64,000 bases of DNA, taken from Thermodesulfovibrionales bacterium (GTDB lineage: Bacteria > Nitrospirota > Thermodesulfovibrionia > Thermodesulfovibrionales > UBA6898). This document shows positions 5,331 to 26,575 of this stretch, one piece after another; position 1 is the first letter of the stretch, and each line of letters opens with the position of its first letter. The notes under the pieces are model-generated. The model saw nothing but the letters and a program-made list of their open reading frames with translations. It was not told where the DNA came from and did not search any database. A program made the position numbers and the translations under genes. The stretch is from assembly GCA_049799315.1 (NCBI GenBank), contig JBARHQ010000020.1:21085-85084 (forward strand). Reading direction: 5' to 3'.

Positions 5331-5345
5331 GTGGTAAAATCACCA

Positions 5346-6788
5346 ATGTTCAGATTTCAATCGAGTATCCAGAACAAGGTCAGGTACGGATACTATCTCT
5401 GTCTTGGGCTTATCATCATCGTCTCGCTCCTGAACTACTTCAACCTCCGTACCGTCAGGAAAAAAATAGACTTCAGTATCATCATCTCCCAATTTTTTGA
5501 TGCAACGCTCGAGATGCGCCGGTATGAAAAAAACTTTATCATCTATAAGGAAAAGAACGAATATCTTGAAAATATGCGGTTCACGGAGATGGCTGAGGGC
5601 ATTCTGATAAAGAACAAGGCAGAGATTGCCCAGCTCTCTCCCGGGACGGATGTTTCAGCCCTGGAAAAGACGATCCGGGTGTACAAGGCGCTCATGGAGC
5701 GGTACTATAACCTCGACCGTCTGAGAGAACCGCATAAGGCGGTTTATATGGAGGGCCAGATCCGTGACCAGGGCAAGAAACTGCTGGCGGTGACCGAGGG
5801 GATTGCCAATGCCGAACGGGACTATATTCGATCACTGATTTTTTCCTCAAAGCGGTTTCTTCTCTATTCCGTCGTCCTTCTGGTTATTGTGGGCTGGGGC
5901 ATCGGCCGTTATCTGTCCCGTATGGTAGTAAGACCGCTGAAGCAGGTTGAAGAGAGCATGCAGAAGATCATCGACGGCAACTTCGAGAAATTTTCCCTGT
6001 CCTCCTCCGACCGTGAGATCCAGTCGCTGAGCGACGCATACAGCCGCCTTCTCAAGGAGCTCGAATCGCGGCAGATGCGGGTCATACTCCAGTCCGAGAA
6101 GCTTGCGTGCATCGGCACGATGGTCTCGGGTGTGGCGCATCAGCTGAACAATCCTCTGGCAAATATATCGAGTTCCTGCCAGATACTGCAGGAGGAGATT
6201 GAAGAGAGCGACGTGGCATATAAACGGGAGCTGCTGCTGCAGGTGGAGAGGGAAGTCGACCGAGCAAAGGCGATGGTCCTTTCTCTGCTTGAGTTTTCGA
6301 GGAAAAAGGAGTTTAAGAGCAAACCGCTGCCCTTGAGGGAATTGGTGACCGAGACGATCAGACTGATCCAGGGCGATATCCCGACCAAGGTAGACCTGCA
6401 GGTTGATATCCCTGAGTATTGCTGGATCGTTGCTGATAAACAGCGCATAGAACAGGCGATTCTCAATATCATAAAGAACAGTATCGATGCCATGCCTGAC
6501 GAAGGCAGTATCATCATCTCTGCAGGTGAAGGCCAGGATTCCGGCACGATCGAACTGAGGATCCGCGATACCGGATTCGGCATCGAGCCCGATGTCATTA
6601 AGAGGATCTTCGAGCCGTTTTTTACCACCAAGGACGAGGGCAAAGGGTCAGGCCTTGGTCTTTTTGTTGCGCGGGAGATTGTCGAAGAACACGAGGGGAT
6701 CATTGAAGTTGAGAGCATACCAGGCACCGGTACGATCTTTACTATCCGGTTGCCGATGAAGGAGGCCTTGTGCGACGGAGGACAGTGA
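5346..6788 (+). CDS. sensor histidine kinase (2 TM, HAMP, HisKA, HATPase_c)
   Basis: Track ORF 5331-6788; start is GTG 5331 or ATG 5346. H-box VSGVAHQLNNPLANI, N-box ILNIIKNSIDAM, G-boxes IRDTGFGI and GSGLGL. Two hydrophobic segments flank a sensor domain of about 150 aa. Confidence 0.85.
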   Translation: MFRFQSSIQNKVRYGYYLCLGLIIIVSLLNYFNLRTVRKKIDFSIIISQFFDATLEMRRYEKNFIIYKEKNEYLENMRFTEMAEGILIKNKAEIAQLSPGTDVSALEKTIRVYKALMERYYNLDRLREPHKAVYMEGQIRDQGKKLLAVTEGIANAERDYIRSLIFSSKRFLLYSVVLLVIVGWGIGRYLSRMVVRPLKQVEESMQKIIDGNFEKFSLSSSDREIQSLSDAYSRLLKELESRQMRVILQSEKLACIGTMVSGVAHQLNNPLANISSSCQILQEEIEESDVAYKRELLLQVEREVDRAKAMVLSLLEFSRKKEFKSKPLPLRELVTETIRLIQGDIPTKVDLQVDIPEYCWIVADKQRIEQAILNIIKNSIDAMPDEGSIIISAGEGQDSGTIELRIRDTGFGIEPDVIKRIFEPFFTTKDEGKGSGLGLFVAREIVEEHEGIIEVESIPGTGTIFTIRLPMKEALCDGGQ

Positions 6789-6794
6789 CGGAGG

Positions 6795-8162
6795 ATGGCG
6801 ATGGAGGCTAAGCCGCGTCTGCTTATTGTCGACGATGAGCTGATAGCCCTGAGGAACCTTGAGCATGTGCTGGTGAAGGAGGGCTATGCAGTCCAGACGA
6901 CACAGAGCAGCTCTAACGCACTGAAGATACTCGAGGAAAGAGGTTTTGATCTGGTCCTGACAGACCTGAAGATGGAGAAGGTAGACGGGATGCAGATACT
7001 GAAGAAGAGCAAATCGCTTTATCCTGATACTGAAGTGGTCATGATCACCGGCTATGCGACAGTCGAATCGGCGATACATGCGATGAAAAAGGGTGCCTAC
7101 GATTACATAGCAAAGCCGTTCAAGCTTGATGAAGTGCGGAGGGTCGTCAAAGAGGCGGTTGAGAAGGTGCGTCTGAAGAAGGAGAATGTTCTGCTGAGGG
7201 AGCAGCTTGAGAGCTATCACGGCAGGGTGAAGATCATCACGCAGGACTCAGCCGTGCAACAGCTGCTTGATACGTCCCGCCAGATCGCACCGACTGACTG
7301 CAATGTTTTGATCAGCGGCGAAAGCGGCACCGGCAAGGAACTGTTTGCGCGGCACGTGCATTTCAACAGCAAGCGGTCTGATGCGATATTCCTGGCGGTC
7401 AACTGTGGGGCCTTTTCCGAGGAGTTGCTGGCGAATGAACTTTTCGGCCACGAAAAGGGTGCGTTTACTGGTGCCCTCTCCCTGAAAAAGGGCTTGATCG
7501 AGATGGCCTCAGGCGGGACGCTCTTCCTTGATGAGGTCACCGAGATGTCGCCGTCGATGCAGGTGAAACTCCTCAGGGTGTTGCAGGAAAAAGAGTTATT
7601 GCGGCTGGGGTCGACTGAACCGCTGAAGGTCGATGTCCGGGTTATTGCTGCGACGAACAGGAATATCCAGGATGCGATACGGTCGGGTAGTTTCAGGCAG
7701 GACCTTTTCTTCAGGCTGAATGTTGTTTCGATTAACATCCCGCCGCTTTCCGCGCGCAAGGACGATATCCCGCTCCTGAGCTATTATTTCCTCAGGAAGT
7801 TTGCCACGCTGATGAACAAAGACGTTCAGGAGATCTCAGCGGATGTTCTCGCGATACTCGGCAATTATGATTTTCCGGGCAATGTCAGGGAGCTTGAGAA
7901 CATTATGGAGCGCGGCGTTGCGCTTTCGAACAGCGGTGTGATCGAAGTGGCGCATCTCCCTGAAGACCTGCGGGAACTCAGCATCAGGACCTTCAGAAAG
8001 AAAGAAGGCAAGATCCCCTCGCTTGAAGACCAGGAGATGTCCTATATTACCTGGGTGTTGGGTGAGGCGGGCGGCAATAAAACGCTCGCGGCCCAGATCC
8101 TTGGCATCGACAGAGTATCTCTCTGGAGGAAATTGAAAAAATACGGCATTGAGGCAGATTAG
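6795..8162 (+). CDS. sigma54-dependent response regulator (NtrC family: REC + AAA+ + Fis-type HTH)
   Basis: LLIVDDE / DLVLTDLKMEKVDG receiver motifs, Walker A GESGTGKE, GAFTGA loop (EKGAFTGA), C-terminal HTH NKTLAAQILGIDRVSLWRKLKKYGI. Confidence 0.9.
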   Translation: MAMEAKPRLLIVDDELIALRNLEHVLVKEGYAVQTTQSSSNALKILEERGFDLVLTDLKMEKVDGMQILKKSKSLYPDTEVVMITGYATVESAIHAMKKGAYDYIAKPFKLDEVRRVVKEAVEKVRLKKENVLLREQLESYHGRVKIITQDSAVQQLLDTSRQIAPTDCNVLISGESGTGKELFARHVHFNSKRSDAIFLAVNCGAFSEELLANELFGHEKGAFTGALSLKKGLIEMASGGTLFLDEVTEMSPSMQVKLLRVLQEKELLRLGSTEPLKVDVRVIAATNRNIQDAIRSGSFRQDLFFRLNVVSINIPPLSARKDDIPLLSYYFLRKFATLMNKDVQEISADVLAILGNYDFPGNVRELENIMERGVALSNSGVIEVAHLPEDLRELSIRTFRKKEGKIPSLEDQEMSYITWVLGEAGGNKTLAAQILGIDRVSLWRKLKKYGIEAD

Positions 8163-8269
8163 GAAACAGGAAGCCGGGATCTACCTTTAAATTTATCCTG
8201 CACAGTGAGACAGCTCAGCAAGTTACTGCGCCCGGTAGGATTATCCTTACATCATTATTCGCACGATCA

Positions 8270-8278
8270 TGATATAAT
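8270..8278 (+). promoter_or_regulatory. extended -10 candidate (TGaTATAAT) ahead of the TCA/respiratory array
   Basis: tgatataat lies 45 nt upstream of the ATG at 8323. No good -35 was seen. Confidence 0.3.
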
Positions 8279-8322
8279 TTTTTTCAGTATTCGACACGGG
8301 ATGACCATAGAGGGAGGCGCGC

Positions 8323-9687
8323 ATGAAGATACGGTCCGTTAATCCATACACTGAAGAGTTGATAGATGAATTCGAACTGATGACGCGCGATGCCATCGAC
8401 AGTGAGGTCGGGAAGTCGAGACTAGCCTTTCGGGTATGGAGCGCGATGCCGGTCGCCACGAGGGTTGCCCATATCAGGAAACTGGGCGAGCATCTCAGGG
8501 CTGAAAAGAGTACCTATGCTGCGCTCATGACCAGAGAAATGGGCAAGCCGATCAGAGAGGCGGCTGCGGAAGTCGAAAAGTGTGCATGGCTCTGCGATTA
8601 CCACGCGGAGAATGGCGGGGCGCTCCTCATGCCTGAGGAAGTCGCCACCGAGTCAAAGAAGAGCTATGTGCTCTTTCAACCCCTGGGCATAGTTTTAGGC
8701 ATTATGCCGTGGAATTTTCCCTTCTGGCAGGCGTTCCGTTTCGGGATACCTGCGATCACCGCCGGCAATGTGGTGATGTTGAAGCATGCCTCCAATGTAC
8801 CCCTATGCGCTTTGGCGATCGAAGAGGCCTTTCTCCGGGCAGGGTTTCAAGACAACATCTTCAAAACACTGCTCATCGATTCGCAAAGCGCCCTGAATCT
8901 TATCGAAGAAGACAAGGTCGATGCGGTCTCTCTTACCGGCAGCAACAGCGCCGGGGAGCAGGTGGGAGCGCTGGCCGGCAAGAGGATCAAAAAGCTCGTG
9001 CTCGAACTCGGCGGCTCTGACCCCTTTATCGTCCTCGACGATGCGGACATAGAAAAGGCCGGCAGGATGGCTGTGAACGCCCGGATGATCAATGCAGGCC
9101 AGAGCTGCGTCGCTGCAAAGCGCTTTATCGTCATGAAGCATGTGGCTGAGGATTTTAGAAGGGTCTTTCTTGCACGTCTCGCGGAGCTGAAAGTGGGTGA
9201 TCCGATGGATGAGTCGACCGATGTGGGGCCGTTGGCCAAACAGGACATTCTCGATTCCCTGCAGGAACAGTTAAGAGATGCCCGGGAAAAGGGGGCTGAG
9301 ATCGTTCAGACAGAGCATACTTTTGGCAAGGGCCTCTTTTTTGCGCCTGCCGTCGTATTCAATCCAACCGGTGAGATGAAGGTCCTGAAGGAGGAGGTCT
9401 TCGGTCCGATAGCGCCGATAATTGCTGTGGACAACGAAGAGGAAGCAATCAGGGAAGCGAATGATACGAAATTCGGTTTGGGCGCCGCGATCTGGGGACG
9501 GGACCTGGAACGGGCCGAACGAATAGCCGCGAAGATCGAGGCGGGCACTGTAGCGATCAATGACATGGTGAAGTCAGATCCGCGGATGCCTTTCGGCGGG
9601 ATGAAAAAATCGGGTGTGGGCAGGGAGCTTTCCCACTATGGTCTCAAGGAATTCGTAAACATCAAATCTGTCGTTGTAAAGGAGTAG
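8323..9687 (+). CDS. NAD(P)-dependent aldehyde dehydrogenase, succinate-semialdehyde dehydrogenase type
   Basis: 454 aa. ALDH motifs ELGGSDP and NAGQSCVAAKR (catalytic Cys); EKCAWLCDYHAE segment typical of the short SSADH group. The SSADH specificity is inferred. Confidence 0.8.
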   Translation: MKIRSVNPYTEELIDEFELMTRDAIDSEVGKSRLAFRVWSAMPVATRVAHIRKLGEHLRAEKSTYAALMTREMGKPIREAAAEVEKCAWLCDYHAENGGALLMPEEVATESKKSYVLFQPLGIVLGIMPWNFPFWQAFRFGIPAITAGNVVMLKHASNVPLCALAIEEAFLRAGFQDNIFKTLLIDSQSALNLIEEDKVDAVSLTGSNSAGEQVGALAGKRIKKLVLELGGSDPFIVLDDADIEKAGRMAVNARMINAGQSCVAAKRFIVMKHVAEDFRRVFLARLAELKVGDPMDESTDVGPLAKQDILDSLQEQLRDAREKGAEIVQTEHTFGKGLFFAPAVVFNPTGEMKVLKEEVFGPIAPIIAVDNEEEAIREANDTKFGLGAAIWGRDLERAERIAAKIEAGTVAINDMVKSDPRMPFGGMKKSGVGRELSHYGLKEFVNIKSVVVKE

Positions 9688-9693
9688 CTCCGA

Positions 9694-11316
9694 ATGAAGG
9701 CGTCCGATCTGCTGGTGAAGTGTCTCGAAAATGAAGGTGTGGAGTTCATCTTCGGTATCCCGGGGGAAGAGACCCTCGATCTCATGGAGTCTCTGCGGAC
9801 CTCCTCTATCCGCTTTATCGTCACCCGGCACGAGCAGGCCGCAGCTTTTATGGCGGATGCATACGGACGTCTCACGGGCAGGCCCGGTGTTTGTCTCGCC
9901 ACCCTGGGCCCCGGTGCGGCCAACCTGCTCACCGGGGTTGCTGACGCGTATCTCGACAAGTCGCCCCTCGTGGCGATCACGGGGCAGGCGGACCTTAAAC
10001 GCATACACAGGGAGTCGCATCAATATATCGATATTGTCGAGATCTTCAGGAACGTGACCAAGTGGAACGCCAGGATTGACTCGCCTGAAGTCATCCCCGA
10101 GCTTGTGCGCAAGGCCTTCAAAGTCGCCACAGCGGAGAAGCCGGGGGCCGTTCACCTGGAACTGCCCGAGAATGTGGCAGCCATGGAGGTGGACGCTATC
10201 TACGAGGCGATGATTCCGCCCATTCGTCCGAGGAGGAGTTCTCCTGACAGGCAGGCGCTGGCAAAGGCGGCAGAGCTGGTTGCACATGCCCGTGTCCCTG
10301 TCATACTTGCAGGGAATGGCGTTGTCCGCAAGTCTGCGGGCGAGAGGCTGCAGCGCTTTGCTGAACTTTTCTGCATCCCGGTCGTGACGACCTTCATGGG
10401 CAAGGGGGGGATATCCGCTGAGAGCGATTGCTGCATAGGGACCCTCGGGCTTGCCAAAGACCGCCAGATCAGGGACGTTTTTCCGCAAGCGGACCTGATT
10501 ATTACTGTGGGCTACGACCTCGTCGAGTATGAGCCTAAGTATTGGAACCCCAGGCTTGAAAAGAAGATCATCCATATCGACTTCACCTCAAGTGAGGTGG
10601 ACCTCCATTACGTGCCTGAAGTCGAGATCATCTCCGACATACGGGAGACGCTCGAAATGCTCGAAGAGGTATTGAGCGCGAAAAAGAAGAGCGAGTGCCA
10701 TATCACGATGCGGGGCGACTTCAGCAGCGGACTCGATATTATGTGCAGGACAGACACATGGCCGCCGCATCCTCCCCGGATCATATGCGGAATACGCAGC
10801 GTGCTCCGTGCCGACGATATCCTGATATCGGATGTGGGCACGTGTAAGCTGTGGGTCGCGAAGTGCTATCCGGTTTACCGGAACAACACGTTTCTGATAT
10901 CTAACGGTCTCGCCTCCATGGGCATATCGCTGCCGGCTGCGATCACCGCAAAGCTCATCTATCCCGACCGCCATGTGGTCGCGGTATGCGGCGACGGTGG
11001 CTTTCTGATGAACCTGCAGGACCTTGAGACGGCATGCAGACTGGGGCTGAACATTGTTATAGTCATTTTTAAAGACAACGGCTACAACCTGATCAAGTGG
11101 AAGGCTGAACGGGAATTCGGCATTGCGCACGGCGTCAGTTTTTCGAACCCCGATTTTGTGAAGCTCGCAGAGAGCTTCGGCGCCATAGGCTACAGGCTCG
11201 AAACATGCAGCGAATTTGACGGCATGCTCAGGGAGGCGTTGACGAAGAACGTGCCGGTCATCATCGATGTACCGATAGACTACAGTGAAAACGACATGAT
11301 CTTCAATCTGCTGTAG
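9694..11316 (+). CDS. ThDP-dependent enzyme of the acetolactate synthase large-subunit family (candidate 2-oxoglutarate decarboxylase)
   Basis: 540 aa. N-terminal GIPGEE...RHEQAAAFMADAYGRLTG. ThDP motif GDGGFLMNLQDLETA...FKDNGYN. Follows the SSADH-type gene after a 6-nt gap. Confidence 0.8.
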   Translation: MKASDLLVKCLENEGVEFIFGIPGEETLDLMESLRTSSIRFIVTRHEQAAAFMADAYGRLTGRPGVCLATLGPGAANLLTGVADAYLDKSPLVAITGQADLKRIHRESHQYIDIVEIFRNVTKWNARIDSPEVIPELVRKAFKVATAEKPGAVHLELPENVAAMEVDAIYEAMIPPIRPRRSSPDRQALAKAAELVAHARVPVILAGNGVVRKSAGERLQRFAELFCIPVVTTFMGKGGISAESDCCIGTLGLAKDRQIRDVFPQADLIITVGYDLVEYEPKYWNPRLEKKIIHIDFTSSEVDLHYVPEVEIISDIRETLEMLEEVLSAKKKSECHITMRGDFSSGLDIMCRTDTWPPHPPRIICGIRSVLRADDILISDVGTCKLWVAKCYPVYRNNTFLISNGLASMGISLPAAITAKLIYPDRHVVAVCGDGGFLMNLQDLETACRLGLNIVIVIFKDNGYNLIKWKAEREFGIAHGVSFSNPDFVKLAESFGAIGYRLETCSEFDGMLREALTKNVPVIIDVPIDYSENDMIFNLL

Positions 11317-11368
11317 GCCTGTACGCAAGTGATCGTGCCGGCTGAACGGAAAGAAAAGGGTGCACGAG

Positions 11369-13318
11369 ATGGCAAGGAACCTTACACATAAGATACTCGG
11401 CGCGCATCTCCTCGAGGGGGAACTCATTCCCAATACTGGGCCCAATACCGGGATTGCGGTGCGGGTAGACCACACCCTGCTTCAGGATGCAACCGGTACG
11501 CTCGTAATGCTCGAATTCGAGTCACTTGGCCTCGATGCAGTGAGGGTGGAGCTCGCGGCCCAGTATATTGATCACAACATTCTCCAGACCGACAACAAAA
11601 ACGCGGACGACCACCGGTATCTGCAGACCTCGTCTGCGAAGTACGGAATTCATTTCAGTATCCCGGGCAACGGGGTCTCGCATCAGGTCCATATGGAACG
11701 CTTCGGGGCACCAGGAAAGATACTCCTCGGCGCCGACAGTCATACACCCGGCGCTGCCGGTGTGTCGATGCTCGGGATCGGAACAGGAGGGCTTGACGTT
11801 GCGCTCGCGATGGCCGGCTACCCGTACTATTTAATGTGCCCTGAGGTGCTGGGCGTGAGGCTGACCGGAAAGCTGCCGGATTGGGTGAGCGCAAAGGATG
11901 TGATTCTTGAGATGCTCCGCAGATACGGGGTGCACGGCTGCATCGGCAAGGTAGTCGAATATTACGGACCCGGGGTTCCCAACCTCTCGGCTACGGACCG
12001 TGAGACAATCGGCAATATGGGCGCTGAGTTGGGGGCGACGAGCTCGGTCTTCCCCTCGGACCGCAGGACGAGGCAGTATCTTGAGGCCCAGGGACGGGGC
12101 GCGGCCTGGGTACCGTTGTCGTCAGACAAAGGGGCGAAATACGATCAGTACGATGAGCTAGACCTCTCCATGCTCGAGCCGCTTATCGCCTGCCCTTCGT
12201 CGCCCGGAAACGTTGTGAAGGTTAGCGAGGTAGCGGGCATAAAAGTGGACCAGGTGATCGTCGGCAGCAGCGTGAACTCCTCTTTCAGGGACCTCATGGT
12301 CGTCGCAAAAATCATGGAGGGAAGACACAGCCATCCGGACACGACGTTCCATATAAACCCGGGTAGCCGCCAGGTGCTCGAAAATGTCGCTTCAAAGGGA
12401 GGGGCGGTCAGCCTGCTGATGGCGGGCTGTCGTATCCACGAGCCGGGGTGCCTCGGTTGCATAGGCATGGGCCAGGCACCTGGAACGGGCCAGGTGAGTC
12501 TCAGGACATTTCCCAGGAATTTCCCGGGACGCTCCGGCACAAAGGACGATAAGATCTACCTCTGTTCTCCCGAGACCGCTGCAGCCGGGACGCTGAAAGG
12601 GGTGATAACAGACCCGCGCAGCCTGGGCGAAGAGATGAAGTACCCGCGGATAAAGGAGCCGCGGCACTACCTTGTGGATGAACGCTCGATCATTTTCCCG
12701 TCTGACGAGTTACGGAAGACCGAACCGGTGCGCGGCCCTAATATACGTCCGCTGCCGTATCTCGCCAGCCTTCCTGAAACGATGCAGGCCGAGGTCGTGC
12801 TACGGGTCGGGGACAATATTTCTACCGATACGATTATGCCGGCCGGCAACAGGGTCCTGCCGCTCCGCTCGAACATCGAGGCGATAAGCGAGTTTGTTTT
12901 TTTACCGATAGCGCCTGACTTTGCAAAGGAGTGCCGGCAGAAGGGAACGGTAATCGTAGTCGGTGGCGACAATTACGGACAGGGATCGAGTCGTGAGCAT
13001 GCTGCCCTTGCGCCCCGTTACCTCGGTGTTTGCGCAAAGATCGTCAAGAGCTTCGCGCGCATCCACAAGTCGAACCTCTGCAATTGGGGCATTCTTCCGC
13101 TCACCTTTGCCGATCCGGGCGACTATGAGCTGCTGAACCAGGGTGCGAGAGTGGTCTTCCCCGACGTGAAGGGACGCATAGAACGCGGCGACAGGGAGAT
13201 ACCGGTCGAGGCGGAAGGCCGGACAGTCATCACCATGCTCGAGGTCTCGGACCGGGAAAGAAAACACCTCCTCGCCGGGGGGACATTAAATTTCGTAAAA
13301 GAGGAGTTACGGCAATGA
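11369..13318 (+). CDS. aconitate hydratase (short, about 650-aa 'Aquifex-type' form)
   Basis: Track ORF 11360-13318; ATG 11369 preferred. Motifs GADSHTPGAAG, GCLGCIGMGQAPG (Fe-S Cys ligands) and GQGSSREHAALAP. Confidence 0.85.
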   Translation: MARNLTHKILGAHLLEGELIPNTGPNTGIAVRVDHTLLQDATGTLVMLEFESLGLDAVRVELAAQYIDHNILQTDNKNADDHRYLQTSSAKYGIHFSIPGNGVSHQVHMERFGAPGKILLGADSHTPGAAGVSMLGIGTGGLDVALAMAGYPYYLMCPEVLGVRLTGKLPDWVSAKDVILEMLRRYGVHGCIGKVVEYYGPGVPNLSATDRETIGNMGAELGATSSVFPSDRRTRQYLEAQGRGAAWVPLSSDKGAKYDQYDELDLSMLEPLIACPSSPGNVVKVSEVAGIKVDQVIVGSSVNSSFRDLMVVAKIMEGRHSHPDTTFHINPGSRQVLENVASKGGAVSLLMAGCRIHEPGCLGCIGMGQAPGTGQVSLRTFPRNFPGRSGTKDDKIYLCSPETAAAGTLKGVITDPRSLGEEMKYPRIKEPRHYLVDERSIIFPSDELRKTEPVRGPNIRPLPYLASLPETMQAEVVLRVGDNISTDTIMPAGNRVLPLRSNIEAISEFVFLPIAPDFAKECRQKGTVIVVGGDNYGQGSSREHAALAPRYLGVCAKIVKSFARIHKSNLCNWGILPLTFADPGDYELLNQGARVVFPDVKGRIERGDREIPVEAEGRTVITMLEVSDRERKHLLAGGTLNFVKEELRQ

Positions 13319-14502
13319 GCGCATCTGCAGAAATCAAGAATACGGGCCTGCGCGGGGTCCCAGTGGCCGACACGAAGATCAGTTATGTCGATGGGACGCA
13401 GGGCGTACTTATTTACCGCGGTTATACGGTGGAAGACCTGGCCGCGAGATCAACATTCATGGAGGTCGCCTGCCTTCTGCTCAATGGTGAGCTGCCCGGT
13501 GCAAATGAACTCAGGCAATTCGAAAATCGTATCAGAGAGGAGAGGGCCCTTCCCGCCTTTATATATGAATGCTTCGGAAGGCTGCCGAAACAGGCGCTCC
13601 CGATGGACGTGCTCCAACTGGCGGTCCCGCTCCTTGCAACCGCAGATCCTGAGCTGCACGACGAGACAAAGGAGGGGAACCTGCGCAAGGCAGTGAGACT
13701 CATCGCGCGGGTGCCGGTGGTGACGGCAGCGTGGCACAGGATCAGGAATGGTATGGAGCCGGTCCCGGCCGACGCATCGCTCGATCATGCTGCCAATTTT
13801 CTATGGCAACTTACCGGTGTGAAGCCGGATCCCGAAATCAGCCGGGACCTCGACATCTGCCTGGTCCTGCATGCGGACCACACCTTTAACGCCTCAACTT
13901 TTGCCTGCCGTGAGGTGGTCTCGACGCGGGCTCATATGTATGCGGGGGTAGCGGCCGGTGTGGGTGCTCTCTCGGGGAGTCTGCATGGCGGTGCGAACGA
14001 GCGTGTCATGGAAATGCTTGTCAGGTTGAAGGATGAGAAAGACATTGCGGGATGGGTGAAGGCACAGCTCGATGCGGGCCAAAAGATCATGGGCATGGGT
14101 CACGCGGTATACAAGACCACGGATCCCCGGGGCAGGGTCCTGAAGGAGATGTCGCGCGGTCTCGGCGAGAAGCTCAAACAATCCCGGTGGTATGAGCTGA
14201 CGGCGCAGGTCGAAGAGGCTGCGCTCGCGGAATTCGCCAAGAGGGGCAAGACAGCGCTCAAGCCGAATGTCGATTTCTTCAGCGCCGCGGTCTACCACAT
14301 GATGGGCATCCCGCGGGACCTCATGACCCCCGTGTTCGCAATCTCCCGGATAGCGGGATGGTGCTCCCATATCATTGAGGAGATATTCGCCGAGGCCCAG
14401 AGTAAGCCGGCCCTCTACAGGCCTGATTCTGACTATATAGGAAACTATTGCGGCCGGACGGGTTGTAACTATCTGCCGATCGAGGCGCGGAAGAGAGGAT
14501 GA
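13315..14502 (+). CDS. gltA: citrate synthase (short dimeric type)
   Basis: 395 aa. ATGA overlap with the aconitase stop. Signature GMGHAVYKTTDPR, plus LVLHADH. Confidence 0.9.
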   Translation: MSASAEIKNTGLRGVPVADTKISYVDGTQGVLIYRGYTVEDLAARSTFMEVACLLLNGELPGANELRQFENRIREERALPAFIYECFGRLPKQALPMDVLQLAVPLLATADPELHDETKEGNLRKAVRLIARVPVVTAAWHRIRNGMEPVPADASLDHAANFLWQLTGVKPDPEISRDLDICLVLHADHTFNASTFACREVVSTRAHMYAGVAAGVGALSGSLHGGANERVMEMLVRLKDEKDIAGWVKAQLDAGQKIMGMGHAVYKTTDPRGRVLKEMSRGLGEKLKQSRWYELTAQVEEAALAEFAKRGKTALKPNVDFFSAAVYHMMGIPRDLMTPVFAISRIAGWCSHIIEEIFAEAQSKPALYRPDSDYIGNYCGRTGCNYLPIEARKRG

Positions 14503-14506
14503 CATA

Positions 14507-15031
14507 ATGCCAGAGCCGAACGAGAGTCCTTCGACTACATCGAGGAGGAGGTTCTTTAAGGTCCTTATCGGTCTTTTCGCCTCAATTAACGCGGCTGCCC
14601 TGGGCATCCCCTTTATCAGGACGCTCCTCAGCTCCCCTTACCGGACTGAGGGGTCTCCGTGGACGCGTCTTGCGGACCTCGCGTCACTGACTGAGAATGA
14701 GCCGTCAGAGATACGGTTCGAGATCACGACCGACGAGGCCTATTTGCACAAGACCGTACTGAACTCTGCCTGGATCATCAGGCATCCGGACTCGACAGTT
14801 ACAGTCTTTTCGCCGGTCTGCACCCATCTCGGTTGCCATTATACCTGGAACTCCGGGACAAGCCATTTCGAATGCCCCTGTCATGCCAGTGTGTTCGGCA
14901 TTGACGGGAAGGTGCTGTCGGGGCCAGCTCCCCGGCCTCTCGACGTTTTGAGTGCGAGAGTTGAAAACGAAGTGGTATTCGTCAAGTGGGAGCAGTTCAG
15001 GGCCGGAAGCCCGGCAAAAATATCTGTATAG
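14507..15031 (+). CDS. Rieske [2Fe-2S] protein with Tat signal
   Basis: SRRRFFKVLIG twin-arginine motif. Cluster boxes CTHLGCHY and CPCHASVF. Confidence 0.85.
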   Translation: MPEPNESPSTTSRRRFFKVLIGLFASINAAALGIPFIRTLLSSPYRTEGSPWTRLADLASLTENEPSEIRFEITTDEAYLHKTVLNSAWIIRHPDSTVTVFSPVCTHLGCHYTWNSGTSHFECPCHASVFGIDGKVLSGPAPRPLDVLSARVENEVVFVKWEQFRAGSPAKISV

Positions 15032-15040
15032 GAGGAACTC

Positions 15041-16774
15041 ATGCTCTCACGTCTGATGCAGTGGCTCGAATACAGATGGCCGGTTTCTTCGGTCACCAGA
15101 CTGATGCTCGATGAAGAGATCCCCGGCGGGGCGAGGTTCGCCTACACCCTGGGAAGCTCGCTGCTGATCGTCTTTATGCTCCAGGCGGTCACCGGTCTGA
15201 TGCAGCTCCTTTTTTATGTATCGTCAACGGAGTATGCCTATGACAGCATCAGCTATCTGCGGACAAAGGTGGCCTTCGGCTGGCTCATTCATGGCATGCA
15301 CTACTGGGGTGCGAACATCATGGTCGTGCTGGTCACCCTGCATATGGCGAGGGTATTTGTTTGGGGTGCGTACAAGCGTCCGCGAGAGCTGACCTGGCTT
15401 GCAGGTGTCCTTCTTCTGATGACGGTCATGGCCTTCAGCTTTACCGGCGCCCCGCTTCACTGGGACCAGCGCGGGTATTGGGCCGGGGAGGTCGGTACCA
15501 GCATCGCCGGAACGACCCCGGTCGTGGGCGGCATGATGAAGCGCTTTATGAGGGGGGGAGAAGAGATGGGACAGCTCACTTTATCGCGCTTCTTCGTCGC
15601 ACATGTCGCTGTCCTGCCCCTGGCCCTCCTGGCAATGTTCACGGTACATATAATAGCGATGAGGCGATTCGGGACTTCGGGACCATGGGCTGCCTCGGGG
15701 CCCGAAGCCGGACCCGAATCCGGAATTATATCGAAGCCTGAATCAAAGCAATTGCCGAAAGGTCCGTTCTGGCCTGATCAGGTCTTTAAAGACGCGGTGA
15801 CCGGGACCGCTGTCTTTATCCTTCTCGTGGGCCTCACTGTTTTTCTGCCGCCCTCATATTCGGGGCAGGCCGATACGCTCGATACCTCGTTTGTACCGAA
15901 GCCGGAGTGGAACTTCCTTTTTCTCTACCAGGCACTGAAATACTTTCAGGGCAGCCTCGAGCCGATCGGTACTGCCGGTGTCCCGACCGTGCTGATCCTG
16001 CTGCTGGTGCTCCTGCCGTTCATCGACAGGAACCCCGAGCGCAATCCCTTCAGACGTCCCGTAGCCATGCTCTGCGCAGCCGGCCTCGCGGGCATAATAA
16101 TATGGCTCAGCATCACCGGTTATCTCAGCACCGGGTTTGCGTTACCAGGGAGTACAGGTGAAACGAAGGCTGCGCAATCGGTCAGGCCCGAAACGCCGCC
16201 GATGAGAGTCAGCCCGATAGCGGCCGAGGCAGTTGCCGCCGAAACGCGACTGTCAGCAAAAACCGAAGTACCACGCGATGCTGGCCACTCTGGGCTTTCG
16301 AAGATTTCGGGACTGCCGGGAAGGGCAGCCTACATCATAGGAAGCTCAGAGACGGGCGCTACGTTGTTCAAAAAGTACTGCATGCCGTGCCACGGACAGG
16401 AGGGGGTTAGCAAACTCCCCAATCCCGGGACTCTGAGAGGCAAGGTGCCTGACCTTAACCCGATCGACAGGGATTTATTGGGCACTGAGGCAGATGCATC
16501 CGCAAAAAATATTGACCGTTTCATCCAGCACGGGGCAGTTCCCGAGGGCAAGGCACCAGCGATAAAGATGCCTTCCTTCGGCGACACCCATACGCTCACG
16601 CAGCAGCAGATAGCCAATATCGAGGCGTATGTCCTGAGATTAAACAGCATCGACCGGGCTGAAATGAGGAACCAGGGCATGCAGCCGCGCAGCTTCTTTC
16701 TGATGCTCGTCTCCGTGTACGCGCTTCTGTTTTTATGGTTCGGCGGGCTCTGGAGAAAGGGGCGGACGTCGTGA
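15041..16774 (+). CDS. cytochrome b (b + subunit-IV-like part) fused to a C-terminal mono-haem cytochrome c domain
   Basis: 577 aa; GGAGGA SD. N-terminal multi-TM cytochrome b-like sequence (WLIHGMHYWGANIMV...). C-terminal soluble part with a single CMPCHG haem motif, followed by one more TM segment. Confidence 0.8.
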   Translation: MLSRLMQWLEYRWPVSSVTRLMLDEEIPGGARFAYTLGSSLLIVFMLQAVTGLMQLLFYVSSTEYAYDSISYLRTKVAFGWLIHGMHYWGANIMVVLVTLHMARVFVWGAYKRPRELTWLAGVLLLMTVMAFSFTGAPLHWDQRGYWAGEVGTSIAGTTPVVGGMMKRFMRGGEEMGQLTLSRFFVAHVAVLPLALLAMFTVHIIAMRRFGTSGPWAASGPEAGPESGIISKPESKQLPKGPFWPDQVFKDAVTGTAVFILLVGLTVFLPPSYSGQADTLDTSFVPKPEWNFLFLYQALKYFQGSLEPIGTAGVPTVLILLLVLLPFIDRNPERNPFRRPVAMLCAAGLAGIIIWLSITGYLSTGFALPGSTGETKAAQSVRPETPPMRVSPIAAEAVAAETRLSAKTEVPRDAGHSGLSKISGLPGRAAYIIGSSETGATLFKKYCMPCHGQEGVSKLPNPGTLRGKVPDLNPIDRDLLGTEADASAKNIDRFIQHGAVPEGKAPAIKMPSFGDTHTLTQQQIANIEAYVLRLNSIDRAEMRNQGMQPRSFFLMLVSVYALLFLWFGGLWRKGRTS

Positions 16775-17169: not shown

Positions 17170-17190
17170 TCGCATGAGGTGTATAACCCT

Positions 17191-17853
17191 ATGAAATGGT
17201 CTCTAAGCCGGGGATCCGGCTTCTCAGGCGGCCCAGCATCCGGCTTACCAGGCGATCAAGTCCTTGCCGGGAATGCAGAGGATGCGGTAAGCAAGAGTCT
17301 TATCTTTACAAGACTGCAGGACCTGATGGCATGGAGCCGCAAGAATTCGGTCTGGCCTTTCAACTTCGGACTCTCATGCTGTTATGTCGAGATGGCGGCA
17401 AGCCTCACGTCGAGGTACGATCTCGCCCGCTTTGGTTCCGAGGTGATACGCGGCACGCCGCGCGAGGCGGACCTGATGATCATCGCCGGCACGGTATTCA
17501 TCAAAATGGCGCCGATCATCAGGCGACTCTATGAACAGATGATGGAGCCGCGCTGGGTCATATCCATGGGCTCCTGCGCAAATTCCGGCGGGATGTACGA
17601 TATATACAGCGTGGTGCAGGGCGTTGATACCTTTCTCCCGGTAGACGTGTATGTCCCGGGCTGTCCGCCCAGACCCGAGGCCTTTATGGAAGGGCTGATG
17701 CTGCTCCAGGAAGCTATCGGAAAGGAGCGGCGTCCGGTTAGCTGGGCCGCAGGACCGCAAGGGGTTGAGATGCCTTCCAGGCCTTCTTTGCGGGACCGGA
17801 AGCGGCCTGCAAGACAGAAGGTAAAAGACCTGGCGCCGCCGGACCGTATATAG
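17191..17853 (+). CDS. nuoB: NADH-quinone oxidoreductase subunit B
   Basis: [17 protein letters not shown] and PGCPP motifs (N2 cluster ligands). Start is ATG 17191 (GAGGTG upstream) or GTG 17179. Confidence 0.9.
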
Positions 17854-19640
17854 TGGCCCTGGATATTACCGGGGTCGGGACAGAGAAGCGGCCCACCATA
17901 CTCGAAGAACTCATTGCCGAGTTTGGGCCAGAGTTCGGTAAAGATGCGTTCGCCGTTCAATCGACCTGTGATACTATCCCGACCCTCTGGATCTCTCCGG
18001 ACAGGGTAACTGAAATACTCCACCACCTCAAATCAGGCCTGCCGCGCCCCTACAGGATGCTCTATGACCTGACCGCTATTGATGAGAGGGTGAGGGAGCA
18101 GCGGTCCGGGCAACCCGCCTGTGATTTTTCGATGGTATACCACCTCATGTCCCATGAAAGGAACGAGGACATTCGACTCAAGGTCCCACTCGCCGGCGAC
18201 CGTCCCTCACTGCGGTCAATCACAGGCATCTGGCCTTCAGCGGCATGGTACGAGCGCGAGGTCTGGGACATGTTCGGCATATCCTTTGAAGGCCACCCGC
18301 ACCTCACGCGGATCCTGATGCCGTCCGAATGGACGGGACATCCCCTCCGCAAGGAGCACCCTGCCCGTGCAACGGAAATGGAGACGTTCCGGCTGACAGA
18401 GGAGATCGAAGACGCCGGTCAGAAGGCCCTCCAGTTCCGGCCGTCGGACTGGGGAATGAAACGCCATCGTGAAGGAACAGAATTCATGTTTCTGAACCTC
18501 GGGCCACAGCATCCCGGTACCCACGGGCTGCTGCGTATCATACTCCAGCTTGACGGTGAGGAGATCGTTGATTCGGTCCTTGATATCGGCTATCACCACC
18601 GCGGCGCTGAAAAAATGGCTGAGCGCCAGACCTGGCATACCTTCATTCCATATACCGACCGCATCGATTATCTCGGAGGCGTGATGAATAACCTGGCCTA
18701 TGTCCTTGGTGTCGAGAGACTTGCCGGCATCGAAGTGCCTGACCGGGCGAAGGTGATCCGCGTAATGATGGCGGAGCTCTTCAGAATAGCGAGCCATCTC
18801 GTCTGGTATGGCACCTTTGCGCAGGATGTCGGCGCGCTTTCGCCTGTTTTCTATACATTCAACGACCGGGAGCGGATATTCGGTATCGTCGAGGCGGTCT
18901 GCGGCGGCCGGATGCATCCTGCCTGGTTCCGCATCGGCGGCGTTGCGCAGGACCTGCCGGAGGGATGGGATTCGCTGATACGCGATTTCGTCGGCTACCT
19001 GCCGAAGAGACTTGCAGAATACGATACGCTGATAATGAGGAACAGCCTGTTCAAGGCACGGACCAGGGGCATCGGACGCTATAGCCGTGACGAGGCGATC
19101 GAGTGGGGCGTGACAGGGCCGGGGCTGAGGGCCTGCGGGTATGAGTGGGACCTGCGCAAGAAGCGGCCTTATTCAGGCTACGACCAGTTCGAGTTCGATA
19201 TCCCGACCGCGCAGCAGGGCGACTGCTACGACCGCGGCGTGGTGCGTGTCGAGGAGATGCGTCAGAGCCTGCGCATTGTCGAGCAATGTCTGAAGAATAT
19301 GCCTGCGGGACCGTACAAATCTGACCACCCATCGGCTGTGCCGCCCCGTAAGGAGCGCACCATGCATGACATAGAAACACTTATCCATCACTTTCTGGGG
19401 GTGAGCTGGGGGCCGGTCATCCCGGCGGGGGAGGCATTTTCTGGCATAGAGGCCTCCAAGGGCGCCAACGGCTATTACCTGATCAGCGACGGTACTGCAA
19501 AGCCATATCGCGCGCGTATCCGGACGCCCTCTTTTGCCCATCTCCAGATGGTCCCTGAGATATGCCGGGGATTGATGGTGGCCGACCTGCTCGCTATCCT
19601 CGGGAGCGTCGACTTTGTCCTTGCGGACGTGGACAGATGA
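17853..19640 (+). CDS. nuoCD: NADH-quinone oxidoreductase fused subunit C/D
   Basis: 595 aa. A NuoC-like N-terminal half (ERE(V)WDMFGI) is joined to a NuoD-like half ([12 protein letters not shown]...DIVLADVDR-type end, [11 protein letters not shown]). Confidence 0.9.
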
Positions 19641-20128
19641 GCCTGACAGACCAGGAACGATCCGAGATCGTCGAAGAAATCCGGGCACATCTCCATATGG
19701 GGGTCCATATGGGGGCCCACAAGCGGGCGGCCTGTGTGGAGGCACTGAAGATCGTCCAGCGCCGCCACGGCTGGATCTCTGACGAGATATGCGATATTGC
19801 GGAGATGCTCGAAATGACCGCTGATGAGGTTGACGGCATCGCTACATTTTACAGCTTCATATTCAGGAGGCCTGTCGGCAAACACCTCATCCTGATCTGT
19901 GACAGTGTATGCTGCTGGACCGTGGGGTATGAGCAGATACGCGAGCATCTTTGCTCACGTCTCGGCATACGCCCGGGTGAGACGAGCGCCGACGGCCAGT
20001 TCACGCTGCTGCCGGTCTCCTGCCTCGGGGCGTGCGATCATGCCCCTGCCATGATTATAGATGAAGACTTGCACGGGGACCTGAACCCGGCGAAAGTCGA
20101 TGAGATCCTGAGGAGATATACGGAATAA
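19637..20128 (+). CDS. nuoE: NADH-quinone oxidoreductase subunit E
   Basis: ATGA overlap with the nuoCD stop. [2Fe-2S] ligands in ICDSVCC...[11 protein letters not shown]. Confidence 0.9.
19692..19715. repeat. perfect 12-nt tandem duplication inside nuoE
   Basis: TCCATATGGGGG x2, in frame; encodes HMGV-HMGA. Confidence 0.9.
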
Positions 20129-21459
20129 TGGCCCGGATAGCCCGAATAGAAACAATAGAAAAGTTCGAAAGACCCCTGACAGGAAGTTTCCGCAAGGATG
20201 GGGCGGCGCTCAGCCTTCGGGAATATGAAAAGGCCGGCGGCTATCGGGCCCTGCGCAAGGCGCTCGGCTCGATGACGCCACTTGAGGTCCGGACATTTGT
20301 TCAGGATTCGAAGCTCCGTGGGCGCGGCGGCGCGGGTTTTCCGACCGGGCAGAAGTGGAGTTTTTTTCCGGTGGGCAGCGACGCGCCCAGGCCCAGGTAC
20401 CTGATAGCGAATGCTGACGAGATGGAGCCCGGCACCTACAAAGACCGCGTACTCATCGAGGGCAATCCGCATCAGCTGATTGAAGGGATCATTGTGAGTG
20501 CCTATGCGCTCGGGGTGGACCATGCCTATATCTTTCTCAGGTTGGAATACAAAGAGGCGGGCCGCCGGCTTATGAGGGCTATAGAAGAGGCGTACCGCAA
20601 CAACTATCTCGGCAAGCGGATACTCAATTCCGGAAACGCCGAATACGCCGAATTCGGCTTGGAACTCAGGCTCCATGTGAGCGCAGGCCGCTACATATGC
20701 GGGGAAGAGACCGCAATGCTGAACGCCCTTGAAGGCCGGAGGCCCGTGCCGCGTGCAAAGCCGCCCCATCCCCAAGTCTGCGGACTCTGGGGAAAGCCGA
20801 CGATCATCAATAACACAGAGACGTTCTGCAACGTACCTCATATCGTCAATAACGGCCCTGAGTGGTTTAAAGGATTAGGCCTCACCGGGGACAGCGGCAC
20901 GAAGATCTATGCGGTGAGCGGCAGGGTGAAGAACCCCGGCGCATTCGAACTTCCGATGGGCACCACGATCCGGGAGCTGCTTGAAGGGAAGGCGGGAGGG
21001 ATGAAGGACGGATACTCGTTCCGGGGCGTAATGCCGGGCGGCGCATCAACGGACTTTCTGATTGCGGACCATCTGGATGTGACGATGGATTTTGACTCTG
21101 TCCAGAAGGCGGGGAGCCGCCTGGGGACCGGCAACATGATCGTTCTCGATGACAGGACCTGCCCTGTCGGCATGGTCAATAACCTGATGCATTTCTTCGC
21201 GCGTGAATCCTGCGGCTGGTGTACCCCCTGCAGGGAGGGGCTGCCGTGGGCGGCTAAGATACTGCAGGGGGTCGAGGACGGCGCCGGGCATCCTGACGAT
21301 ATCGGACTGCTCGAATATCTCACGCGTCTGCTCTCTCCGGGCAATACCTTCTGTGCGCTCGCGCCAGGGGCCGTCGAGCCGCTCCAGAGCGCCTTGAAAT
21401 ATTTCAGGGCTGATTTCGAGCAGCACATAAGTGAAAAGAGATGCCCGTGGAAAAGATGA
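20128..21459 (+). CDS. nuoF: NADH-quinone oxidoreductase subunit F
   Basis: GRGGAGFPTGQKW (FMN/NADH site) and ESCGWCTPCREG (N3 cluster). Confidence 0.95.
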   Translation: MARIARIETIEKFERPLTGSFRKDGAALSLREYEKAGGYRALRKALGSMTPLEVRTFVQDSKLRGRGGAGFPTGQKWSFFPVGSDAPRPRYLIANADEMEPGTYKDRVLIEGNPHQLIEGIIVSAYALGVDHAYIFLRLEYKEAGRRLMRAIEEAYRNNYLGKRILNSGNAEYAEFGLELRLHVSAGRYICGEETAMLNALEGRRPVPRAKPPHPQVCGLWGKPTIINNTETFCNVPHIVNNGPEWFKGLGLTGDSGTKIYAVSGRVKNPGAFELPMGTTIRELLEGKAGGMKDGYSFRGVMPGGASTDFLIADHLDVTMDFDSVQKAGSRLGTGNMIVLDDRTCPVGMVNNLMHFFARESCGWCTPCREGLPWAAKILQGVEDGAGHPDDIGLLEYLTRLLSPGNTFCALAPGAVEPLQSALKYFRADFEQHISEKRCPWKR

Positions 21460-24233: not shown

Positions 24234-25186
24234 GAGGGACGGCAGAACAGGTAATTGTTGTATTCGGGGTCCTTGCTGCAGCAGTCACGACCGCAGCAAT
24301 GCTGATATGGCTTGAACGCAGGCTGCTCGGACTCTGGCAGGATCGCTACGGGCCGAACCGCGTCGGACCGTTCGGGCTTCTGCAAGTGTTTGCCGACATG
24401 ATCAAGGTCCTGACCAAGGAGGACTGGATCCCGCCCTTTGCGGACAGGCCGGTCTTTATTATTGCGCCTGCAGTGCTTATGGTCAGCGTACTCCTATCTT
24501 TTGCGGTCATCCCCTTCAGCCCGGGTATCATGATAGCGGACCTCAATGTCGGCCTCCTCTTCTTCCTCGCCATGTCATCCCTTGGGGTTTATAGCATAGC
24601 GCTTGCGGGCTGGTCCTCCGATAGCAAATACTCGCTCCTCGGCGGACTGAGGGCCGCTGCCCAGATGCTGAGTTACGAGATATTCATGGGCCTTTCACTG
24701 ATGGGGGTGGTCATGCTCGCGGGCTCGTTCAGTCTCCGCGATATCGTGGAGGCGCAGCGGGGGATCTGGTACTGTGTGCCCCAGTTCGCCGGTCTGGTCG
24801 TCTTCATGATCGCCGGGATAGCAGAGACCCACCGGTTGCCTTTTGATCTGCCCGAGGCCGAAAACGAGCTGGTTGCGGGTTATCATTCCGAATATTCCGG
24901 TATGAAGTTCGGCATGTTCTTTGTGGGCGAGTATCTTGGGATAACTCTTATCTCGGCCCTTATCACGACGCTCTTTTTCGGCGGGTGGCTCGGACCATTT
25001 TTGCCGCCTATCGTCTGGTTTCTGCTTAAGACTTTTGTCTTTATCTGCGGCTTTATCCTCCTTCGGGCGTCGCTCCCGAGGCCGCGGTATGACCAACTGA
25101 TGTCGTTCGGCTGGAAGGTTATGCTGCCGCTCACCCTTCTGAATATCCTGATCACCGGGCTGGCTGTGCTGGCGGCCCGAGGATAG
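24230..25186 (+). CDS. nuoH: NADH-quinone oxidoreductase subunit H
   Basis: ATGA overlap with the nuoG stop. Contains [26 protein letters not shown]. Confidence 0.9.
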
Positions 25187-25193
25187 GGAGGGG

Positions 25194-25712
25194 ATGATGC
25201 TGAGCCTGCTCAGGACAATCTGGACAGTCTTCCTTCATATGTTCCGAAGGCGTGAGACGATTCTCTATCCCGAGGAGAGGCCATATCTGCCCCCACGCTG
25301 GCGTGGCAGGATCATCCTCTCGCGGGACCCTGACGGCGGGGAGAGGTGTGTAGCCTGCGGACTCTGTGCCGTCGCCTGCCCGGTGGATTGCATCGCCCTG
25401 CAGGCAACGGAAGATGCGCATGGGCGGCGGTATCCTGAATTCTTCCGCATCAATTTCTCGCGCTGCATTTTCTGCGGTTTTTGCGAGGAGGCATGCCCTA
25501 CATACGCGATCCAGCTCACCCCGGATTTCGAGATGGGAGAATATGACCGCAAAAATCTTGTCTACGAAAAGGAGGACCTGCTCATCAGCGGTCCGGGGAA
25601 GTATCCGGACTACAATTTCTATAAAGTCGCCGGACTCTCTATTGCCGGGAAGGACAAGGGGGAGTCTGAAAATGAGGACCCGCCGGTAGACGTCAGGGGC
25701 CTGATGCCATGA
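25194..25712 (+). CDS. nuoI: NADH-quinone oxidoreductase subunit I
   Basis: Two 4Fe-4S boxes: [12 protein letters not shown] and [12 protein letters not shown]. Confidence 0.9.
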
Positions 25713-26266: not shown

Positions 26267-26574
26267 TAGGGCCGGGTATGATGCATCAGGGACTCCTGCT
26301 TGCGGCAATCCTCTTTGTCCTTGGACTCGCCGGAGTCCTGATACGGCGGAATATCCTTTTTATGCTCATGTCGATCGAGATCATGCTGAATGCGGCCGGA
26401 CTCGCCTTTGTCGCAGCGGGTTCCGCTTGGGGACAGCCTGACGGCCAGGTATTCTTCATCTTCATTCTGACCATGGCGGGTGCAGAAGTCGCGGTCGGAC
26501 TCGCCCTTGTCCTCCAGATCTACCGAAGGTTCAGGACCCTGGATGCTGACGAAATCAGCAGGATGAGGGACTGA
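26263..26574 (+). CDS. nuoK: NADH-quinone oxidoreductase subunit K
   Basis: 103 aa, 3 TM, ...[16 protein letters not shown]...; conserved position. Confidence 0.85.
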
Positions 26575-26575
26575 C

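Follow-up and report, generated by a model that had tools for sequence, protein, structure and literature searches.

The locus studied here raises the question of how 2-oxoglutarate is converted to succinate in a bacterium whose genome encodes no recognisable 2-oxoglutarate dehydrogenase (OGDH). It lies in a stretch of 64,000 nucleotides, called the window below, from contig JBARHQ010000020.1 of a Thermodesulfovibrionales bacterium of the phylum Nitrospirota, in which a gene for an aldehyde dehydrogenase (ALDH) is followed by a gene for a thiamine diphosphate (ThDP)-dependent enzyme and then by genes for aconitase and citrate synthase. The window is part of contig C20 in our numbering, and the assembly has 3.38 Mb in 294 contigs and is 98.2% complete. 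Judged by how its nearest protein homologues are named, the organism belongs to Nitrospirota, close to Thermodesulfovibrionales and 'Candidatus Sulfobium'. In the original prediction, made from the letters of the DNA, the pair was taken for the bypass known from cyanobacteria, replacing OGDH, rather than for a part of branched-chain amino-acid synthesis. Family membership, conserved residues, synteny and genome content all argue for this reading, to which we give a probability of roughly 0.68: the ALDH and the ThDP enzyme would form a route from 2-oxoglutarate to succinate that needs neither coenzyme A (CoA) nor lipoate, as in the cyanobacterial bypass.

In the mechanism that we propose, the ThDP enzyme would decarboxylate 2-oxoglutarate non-oxidatively to succinic semialdehyde (SSA) and CO2, and the ALDH would oxidise SSA to succinate, probably with NADP+, since Lys154 and Ser157 are present in it. 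Together with isocitrate dehydrogenase (ICDH), succinate dehydrogenase/fumarate reductase, fumarase and malate dehydrogenase (Mdh) encoded elsewhere, the pair would close the oxidative tricarboxylic acid (TCA) cycle without OGDH and without succinyl-CoA synthetase. The ALDH and ThDP genes are predicted to be translationally coupled, with a Shine-Dalgarno sequence in the ALDH stop region, and we infer that carbon flows through the bypass and that the pair is probably co-transcribed with the genes for aconitase, citrate synthase, a bc-type complex and complex I.

The aldehyde dehydrogenase is most likely a succinic semialdehyde dehydrogenase

The ALDH matches PF00171 with 458 bits, and its top NCBIfam models are those of succinic semialdehyde dehydrogenases (SSADHs), under their equivalog cut-offs (515 vs 730 bits). 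The resemblance of this 454-residue protein to the cyanobacterial SSADH, which had been proposed at the outset, was borne out by the structures: its best match in the Protein Data Bank (PDB) is the SSADH of Synechococcus sp. PCC 7002 (4it9/3vz1, 417 bits), aligned from end to end, and the next is E. coli Sad (396 bits). In the cyanobacterial enzyme Cys262, Glu228 and Asn131 are catalytic, Trp135, Arg139 and Ser419 bind the SSA carboxylate, and Lys154 and Ser157 are the NADP determinants (PMC7510979). The SSADH-like features seen by the original prediction proved to be complete in this respect, as the window ALDH retains W130, N131, W135, R139, K154, S157, E228, C262 and S419, and thus all SSA-binding and catalytic residues; the set is likewise conserved in every cluster-linked ALDH that we compared. 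With nearest characterised relatives that are all SSADHs and with these residues kept, the protein is most likely an SSADH. By tblastn it is also the sole ALDH-superfamily gene in the genome. Neither a glutamate decarboxylase (GadB) nor a dedicated γ-aminobutyrate (GABA) transaminase (GabT) was found in the genome, and therefore there is no GABA-shunt source of SSA; the shunt was considered and rejected, the GabT-like matches being ArgD and BioA.

The ThDP enzyme shares its family and most active-site residues with cyanobacterial 2-oxoglutarate decarboxylases

The ThDP enzyme belongs to NF006187/PRK08322, scoring 726.4 bits against a cut-off of 509. NF006187 is also the top match of the ThDP enzymes linked to SSADH in cyanobacteria (859-882 bits), and these show the same pattern of secondary matches as the window enzyme. 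The catabolic acetolactate synthase AlsS of B. subtilis reaches 943 bits with the AlsS model, and its 506.7 bits with NF006187 are just under the cut-off. On the AlsS model NF006378 the window enzyme reaches 511.9 bits, marginally over the cut-off of 510, and the cyanobacterial 2-oxoglutarate decarboxylase (2-OGDC) orthologues are similarly marginal at 510-521 bits. The name of NF006187, 'acetolactate synthase large subunit', is misleading because the SSADH-linked cyanobacterial 2-OGDCs score so far above AlsS on this model; the sources give the same name to close homologues of the window enzyme, where these are named. Over its full length the window enzyme is 49-53% identical to the ThDP enzymes linked to SSADH in cyanobacteria; the identity is 34% with AlsS and about 31% with IlvB and IlvI, the acetohydroxyacid synthases (AHAS). 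Its closest solved structures are AlsS enzymes, at 343-349 bits (B. subtilis 4rjj, K. pneumoniae 1ozf).

For the comparison of residues we used the Oscillatoria orthologue as the reference, the numbering of which is the same as that of the Microcystis enzyme MaKGD (PMC10418658). Of 17 active-site residues of MaKGD, 14 are present in the window enzyme. The six residues identified by mutagenesis as cofactor or catalytic residues (E50, M410, D435, D462, Y465 and L467; PMC10418658) are identical (E47, M409, D434, D461, Y464 and L466). Docking to an AlphaFold model places K386 and K471 of MaKGD on the distal carboxylate of 2-oxoglutarate (PMC10418658). Both lysines are kept, as are V382 and A408, and among these docking-modelled 2-oxoglutarate binders Q254 is replaced by Ala. 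At positions 386 and 471 AlsS has Y, Q, E or A and Q, respectively, and AHAS has Q and W, so neither has the lysines; nor does the window enzyme carry the AlsS-type residues at 386, 408 and 471.

The enzyme was placed in two mutually consistent trees, a quick one of 111 sequences and a careful one of 66 sequences. AHAS and AlsS each form a clade with 100/100 support, and the window enzyme falls outside both, grouping with further sequences from Nitrospirota and Chloroflexota in another clade with 100/100 support (type B). Together with the cyanobacterial enzymes, a homologue from Methanoperedens and another group from Nitrospirota (type A), type B belongs to a larger clade, whose support is 96 (SH-aLRT) in the quick tree and 90/78 in the careful one. 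The phylogeny excludes the ThDP enzyme from AlsS and AHAS proper, and by itself it is no proof of orthology with the cyanobacterial enzymes.

The gene pair recurs in cyanobacteria, metagenomes and Nitrospirota

Using the PCC 7002 SSADH sequence we retrieved cyanobacterial loci (n=80). An SSADH gene followed by a ThDP enzyme gene on the same strand, the order seen in the window, was present in about 35 of the 80 fetched loci, all but two of these having cyanobacterial record titles. Of the metagenome contigs with close type B homologues, one shows the window's order of ALDH, ThDP enzyme, aconitase and (citrate synthase), and two others retain the ALDH-ThDP pair alone in other surroundings; the contigs that carry the recurring pair of ALDH and type B genes are P0004, P0007 and P0010.

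Another Nitrospirota family has a conserved same-strand cluster in the order aconitase, citrate synthase, ALDH and type A ThDP enzyme (genomes G005, G042, G057 and G095; loci L126-L129). Compared with the window, its aconitases are 72-75%, its citrate synthases 62-68% and its ALDHs 64-70% identical, and its ThDP enzymes are 44-48% identical with a more divergent active site. Four sampled genomes of this family hold, in addition, a stand-alone type B gene (L114-L117), 69-72% identical to that of the window. The window lineage has type B within the module and no type A, that is, a paralogue swap relative to the type A family. Across 121 sampled Nitrospirota genomes, 31 have a member of NF006187 and 22 have a close ALDH (at least 64% identical); 17 of these 22 have an NF006187 member as well, or 18 if a gene truncated at a contig end is counted. 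The association is strong but phylogenetically clustered, and it therefore represents few independent lineages, not 17. Linkage to this one SSADH type is seen in three separate NF006187 lineages, two of which are linked to aconitase and citrate synthase as well.

A different neighbourhood was seen at a Chloroflexota locus (L132, on the contig carrying P0117). The type B homologue there is 67% identical and lacks an adjacent ALDH, and its gene is located two genes away (with an 87-aa open reading frame between) from a gene for a 719-aa aldehyde:ferredoxin oxidoreductase (AOR), which could be an alternative aldehyde-oxidising partner.

The genome has the TCA cycle enzymes other than OGDH and succinyl-CoA synthetase

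Citrate synthase, aconitase, ICDH, SdhAB, FumC and Mdh are all present in the genome, OGDH and succinyl-CoA synthetase are absent, and candidate 2-oxoacid:ferredoxin oxidoreductases (OFORs) remain. The ICDH is a type II NADP-ICDH on C14; a match to the E. coli-type Icd turned out to be LeuB, and no monomeric ICDH was found in the genome. SdhB is present, SdhA is encoded in two parts at the ends of contigs C2 and C255, and a further 'SdhA-like' gene on C291 is NadB. There are three citrate synthase paralogues, the two others being PrpC-like (C188) and of the PRK14032 type (C216), and two aconitases, the second being of the PRK07229 type on the 6-kb contig C292, so the citrate synthase and aconitase of the module may be neither the only nor the housekeeping copies. 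A tblastn search of the genome found no SucA and no SucB. No E2 core of a 2-oxoacid dehydrogenase was found in the genome, and no Ligase_CoA domain either, which means that it has neither SucCD nor ATP-citrate lyase (ACL).

An ilvBN operon is located on C133, with the gene for IlvB (TIGR00118, 866 bits) ahead of one for a homologue of IlvN/IlvH, and because of this true operon the ThDP enzyme is not the cell's acetolactate synthase. That no small subunit of acetolactate synthase and no ilv gene lies in the neighbourhood of the pair had been noted in the original prediction and was confirmed; acetolactate decarboxylase was not found in the genome. Within the same order, a Ligase_CoA domain is absent from nearly all genomes sampled (no SucCD, no ACL), and most of these genomes are also without the ALDH/ThDP pair. 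A horseshoe-type TCA pathway is the order-wide background, and the window lineage therefore stands out in a group otherwise read as having a horseshoe.

Points against the bypass and alternative explanations

Several observations weigh against a 2-oxoglutarate bypass. Three of the 17 reference residues differ in the ThDP enzyme (Q254A, A384T and H385C), and Q254 is one of the three MaKGD residues modelled in polar contact with 2-oxoglutarate (PMC10418658); the role of the two retained lysines derives from docking to the AlphaFold model and not from mutagenesis (PMC10418658). The cyanobacterial lineage is the only one of NF006187 characterised by assay, so that 2-oxoglutarate is a predicted substrate for type B. 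The separation from acetolactate synthases, for which the original prediction had proposed a phylogeny as a check, holds in that the enzyme lies outside AlsS and AHAS and in a clade with the cyanobacterial 2-OGDCs, and it fails to extend to the deeper branching: the cyanobacterial enzymes are not the sister group of type B, the backbone of the larger clade is weak (90/78), and an approximately unbiased (AU) test does not reject type B and AlsS as one clade (p = 0.4), for which reason we do not take the function as settled by phylogeny alone. The two genes also occur apart. Several close type B homologues are solitary, without an ALDH, including two on metagenome contigs, one of them near an AOR, and four genomes of one Nitrospirota family have the close ALDH as a solitary gene. 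The absences from the genome are not absolute, given a draft assembly of 294 contigs, and the OFORs of C60 and C50, a fused Cat1-type CoA-transferase and an ADP-forming acyl-CoA synthetase could provide another route. None of the computable observations that the original prediction had named as contradicting it was made.

The OFORs and CoA-dependent enzymes just named lead to a first alternative, which we consider unlikely and which is compatible with the bypass: 2-oxoglutarate may be oxidised mainly by a ferredoxin-dependent OFOR (the KorAB-like enzyme of C60 or that of C50) and succinyl-CoA cleaved by a CoA-transferase or an ADP-forming acyl-CoA synthetase, the pair being auxiliary, for example as an oxygen-tolerant alternative or in SSA detoxification. 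The OFORs of the genome are PorAB, IorAB, a two-subunit enzyme (C60) and a three-subunit enzyme with alpha, beta and gamma (C50). The C60 alpha subunit passes TIGR03710 and is equally similar to the 2-oxoglutarate:ferredoxin oxidoreductase (OGOR) of Magnetococcus (6n2n, 278.5 bits) and to the broad-specificity Sulfolobus OFOR, and the genome encodes both an ADP-forming acyl-CoA synthetase (C196) and, on C50, a CoA-transferase domain of the Cat1 family. Moreover, the anaerobes Desulfurella and Desulfobacter run a TCA variant with OGOR and succinyl-CoA:acetate CoA-transferase (PMC9768450), which shares with the window genome a 2-oxoglutarate-to-succinate segment without SucCD, the genome having candidate OFORs and a Cat1-domain protein. 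That variant, however, is CoA- and ferredoxin-dependent, and the candidates of the window genome stay below the specific thresholds: no protein reaches an equivalog cut-off specific for 2-oxoglutarate or succinyl-CoA (KorA NF007206, 193-245 vs 579; ScpC NF053853, 90 vs 500). The absence of sucA, sucB and sucCD from the genome agrees with the original prediction; as to korAB, two OFORs (C60 and C50) are present, neither passing a 2-oxoglutarate-specific cut-off. The lack of SucCD also counts against an OFOR-based route, and the Pat-like GNAT domain that forms part of the CoA-transferase points to a regulatory protein. None of the candidate genes is near a TCA gene, but the ALDH/ThDP pair sits in the midst of such genes, and the neighbours of the C60 OFOR give no functional clue. 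The ferredoxin-dependent route is without positive support.

On contig C50 the OFOR genes are split, with beta and gamma together (~8370-9688) and a VorB-like alpha 10.5 kb away (20149-21240), followed by a LuxR-type response regulator. The same contig carries, on the minus strand at 12070-13989, a 639-aa Cat1-type acetyl-CoA hydrolase/transferase (PF02550 and PF13336) with the Pat-like GNAT domain at its C-terminus. It was the single Cat1-type match and was rejected as a CoA-transferase candidate, being a GNAT fusion under every specific cut-off; CoA-transferases of the AtoDA type and of the family III type were not found in the genome.

Second among the alternatives, and likewise improbable, is that the pair is a decarboxylase and dehydrogenase for another 2-oxoacid, for example omega-carboxy acids such as 2-oxoadipate or oxaloacetate, yielding glutarate or malonate semialdehyde, with TCA neighbours that are loosely related. 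The deep branching of type B outside the characterised enzymes fits this idea, as do the replacement of the cyanobacterial Q254, A384 and H385, the frequent occurrence of type B as a solitary gene or beside other aldehyde oxidisers such as the AOR in Chloroflexota, and the genomes of family f13, which hold both type A and type B and so hint at separate roles. Against it, the ALDH retains the exact set for the SSA carboxylate (W135, R139 and S419), both modelled carboxylate-binding lysines are present in the ThDP enzyme, three NF006187 lineages are tied to the same SSADH type and two of them to aconitase and citrate synthase as well, and 2-oxoglutarate is the expected product of the co-clustered citrate synthase and aconitase plus the ICDH of the genome.

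Finally, that the ThDP enzyme is a catabolic or anabolic acetolactate synthase as annotated, with the ALDH as an unrelated neighbour, is highly improbable: the source name, the 511.9 bits on NF006378, the AlsS structures as nearest relatives and the sister position to AlsS left standing by the AU test are outweighed by its place outside the two 100/100 clades, the equally marginal AlsS scores of the cyanobacterial orthologues, the missing AlsS-type residues, the separate ilvBN operon, the lack of acetolactate decarboxylase and the conserved, coupled pairing with SSADH.

Comparison with known systems

By family profile, residues and synteny, the window system belongs with the cyanobacterial OgdA/SsaD bypass, as far as can be judged from sequence. 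Members of this bypass are A2770/A2771 of Synechococcus sp. PCC 7002 (described by Zhang and Bryant 2011 and summarised in PMC5160925 and PMC12214013), sll1981 of Synechocystis, and MaKGD of Microcystis (PMC10418658). Shared with it are the protein families (an NF006187 ThDP enzyme and an SsaD/Sad-type ALDH), the order and strand of the genes, the full SSADH residue set, the 14 of 17 KGD residues and a genome without OGDH. It differs in its host, a non-photosynthetic member of the Nitrospirota (Thermodesulfovibrionales), in a ThDP enzyme that forms the separate deep type B lineage with about 50% identity and the three replacements, in the joining of the pair with aconitase, citrate synthase, bc complex and complex I genes in one array, and in the lack of SucCD, which Synechococcus 7002 has (PMC5160925). 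With AlsS (4rjj, 1ozf) the ThDP enzyme shares the fold, the domain order, the active-site Glu, the GDG motif and Asp462, whereas AlsS is 34% identical, forms its own 100/100 clade and lacks a Lys at 386, with Gln at both 408 and 471; the window genome is also without an acetoin-pathway partner. The type A cluster of Nitrospirota has the same four functions in one same-strand cluster, with aconitase, citrate synthase and ALDH 62-75% identical, and differs in gene order, in having the other ThDP paralogue with its more divergent active site, and in that type A genomes carry Ligase_CoA genes (SucCD and/or ACL).

Zhang and Bryant already noted close homologues of the bypass in anaerobes and methanogens (PMC12214013), and such a pair outside cyanobacteria is therefore no surprise. 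In the Nitrospirota class 9FT-COMBO-42-15, which lacks SucCD, the TCA pathway has been described as a non-cyclic 'horseshoe' (PMC11033732), and our literature search found no paper linking Nitrospirota to the 2-oxoglutarate decarboxylase/SSADH bypass. Most likely, then, the pair represents a known pathway in a new host, a member of the Nitrospirota. If the pair works as proposed, acetyl-CoA could be oxidised completely by a cycle without lipoate, without CoA at the 2-oxoglutarate step and without oxygen-sensitive ferredoxin enzymes, and the TCA cycle would be genetically coupled to the respiratory chain. The naming of NF006187 is an annotation trap, as the family labelled acetolactate synthase is the one to which the characterised 2-oxoglutarate decarboxylase of cyanobacteria belongs.

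A broader idea, which we put forward tentatively and regard as possible rather than probable, is that a mobile or modular 'cycle-closing' unit of aconitase, citrate synthase, SSADH and KGD exists in Nitrospirota and is here joined to a bc complex and complex I. Such a unit might complete the order-wide horseshoe TCA pathway (no OGDH, SucCD or ACL), making of it an oxidative cycle that is respiratory and free of CoA, its decarboxylase slot being filled by either of two NF006187 paralogues (type A or type B), and much of NF006187 in Nitrospirota, Chloroflexota and Methanoperedens might then be 2-oxoglutarate decarboxylase. Were this true, published reconstructions of an 'incomplete TCA' for such lineages would need revising.

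Organisation of the locus

The features of the locus are listed in Table 1. The four open reading frames for ALDH, ThDP enzyme, aconitase and citrate synthase were found with the positions and lengths originally given for them, and Pfam and NCBIfam searches agree with their families; the citrate synthase, in addition, scores 411.2 bits on TIGR01800, slightly short of the cut-off of 421.3.

Table 1. Positions in the window of the gene pair and of the features around it
Feature	Position	Strand	Evidence
ALDH, SsaD/Sad-type succinic semialdehyde dehydrogenase, 454 aa	8323-9687	+	PF00171, nearest structures, SSADH residues
ThDP-dependent enzyme, NF006187, probable 2-oxoglutarate decarboxylase (type B), 540 aa	9694-11316	+	profile, identity, residues, trees
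Aconitate hydratase, PRK07229 type, 652 aa	11360-13318	+	NF005558, 906 bits vs cut-off 612
Citrate synthase, type II family, 395 aa	13315-14502	+	PF00285, 421 bits
Rieske protein and cytochrome b/c fusion (bc-type complex)	14507-16774	+	profile matches; context
nuo genes (NADH:quinone oxidoreductase)	17179-31628	+	nuoB and nuoCD identified by NCBIfam; context
AtoS/AtoC-like histidine kinase and sigma-54-dependent response regulator	5331-8162	+	upstream context, Pfam/NCBIfam
Candidate extended -10 promoter element TGaTATAAT	8269-8277	+	~45 nt 5' of ALDH start; read from sequence

The four genes form one compact same-strand array that runs into the bc-complex and complex I genes. The gap of 6 nt between the ALDH and ThDP genes, as first reported, was measured on the sequence, and an AAGGAG Shine-Dalgarno sequence overlaps the ALDH stop codon; the start of citrate synthase overlaps the stop of aconitase by 4 nt, and a gap of 4 nt separates citrate synthase from the Rieske gene. 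Inside the array no intrinsic terminator stands out above chance. The 160-nt gap 5' of the ALDH gene (8163-8322) contains a GGAGG Shine-Dalgarno sequence. A scan for the sigma-70 consensus gave no plus-strand site in this gap, where the TGaTATAAT element sits. No sigma-54 -24/-12 site was found in the gap either, matches across the window being below chance, and a sigma-54 promoter between the response regulator and the ALDH gene was rejected on the lack of a site.

Between the TCA and nuo genes, after the Rieske gene, the window encodes at 15041-16774 a 577-aa cytochrome b with N- and C-terminal domains that is fused to a C-terminal c-type cytochrome domain. Elsewhere in the genome, the third ThDP paralogue (C25:1144-2856), which is of the oxalyl-CoA decarboxylase/2-hydroxyacyl-CoA lyase type, lies directly 3' of a gene of the phosphoenolpyruvate mutase/methylisocitrate lyase family (C25:264-1133; locus L003).

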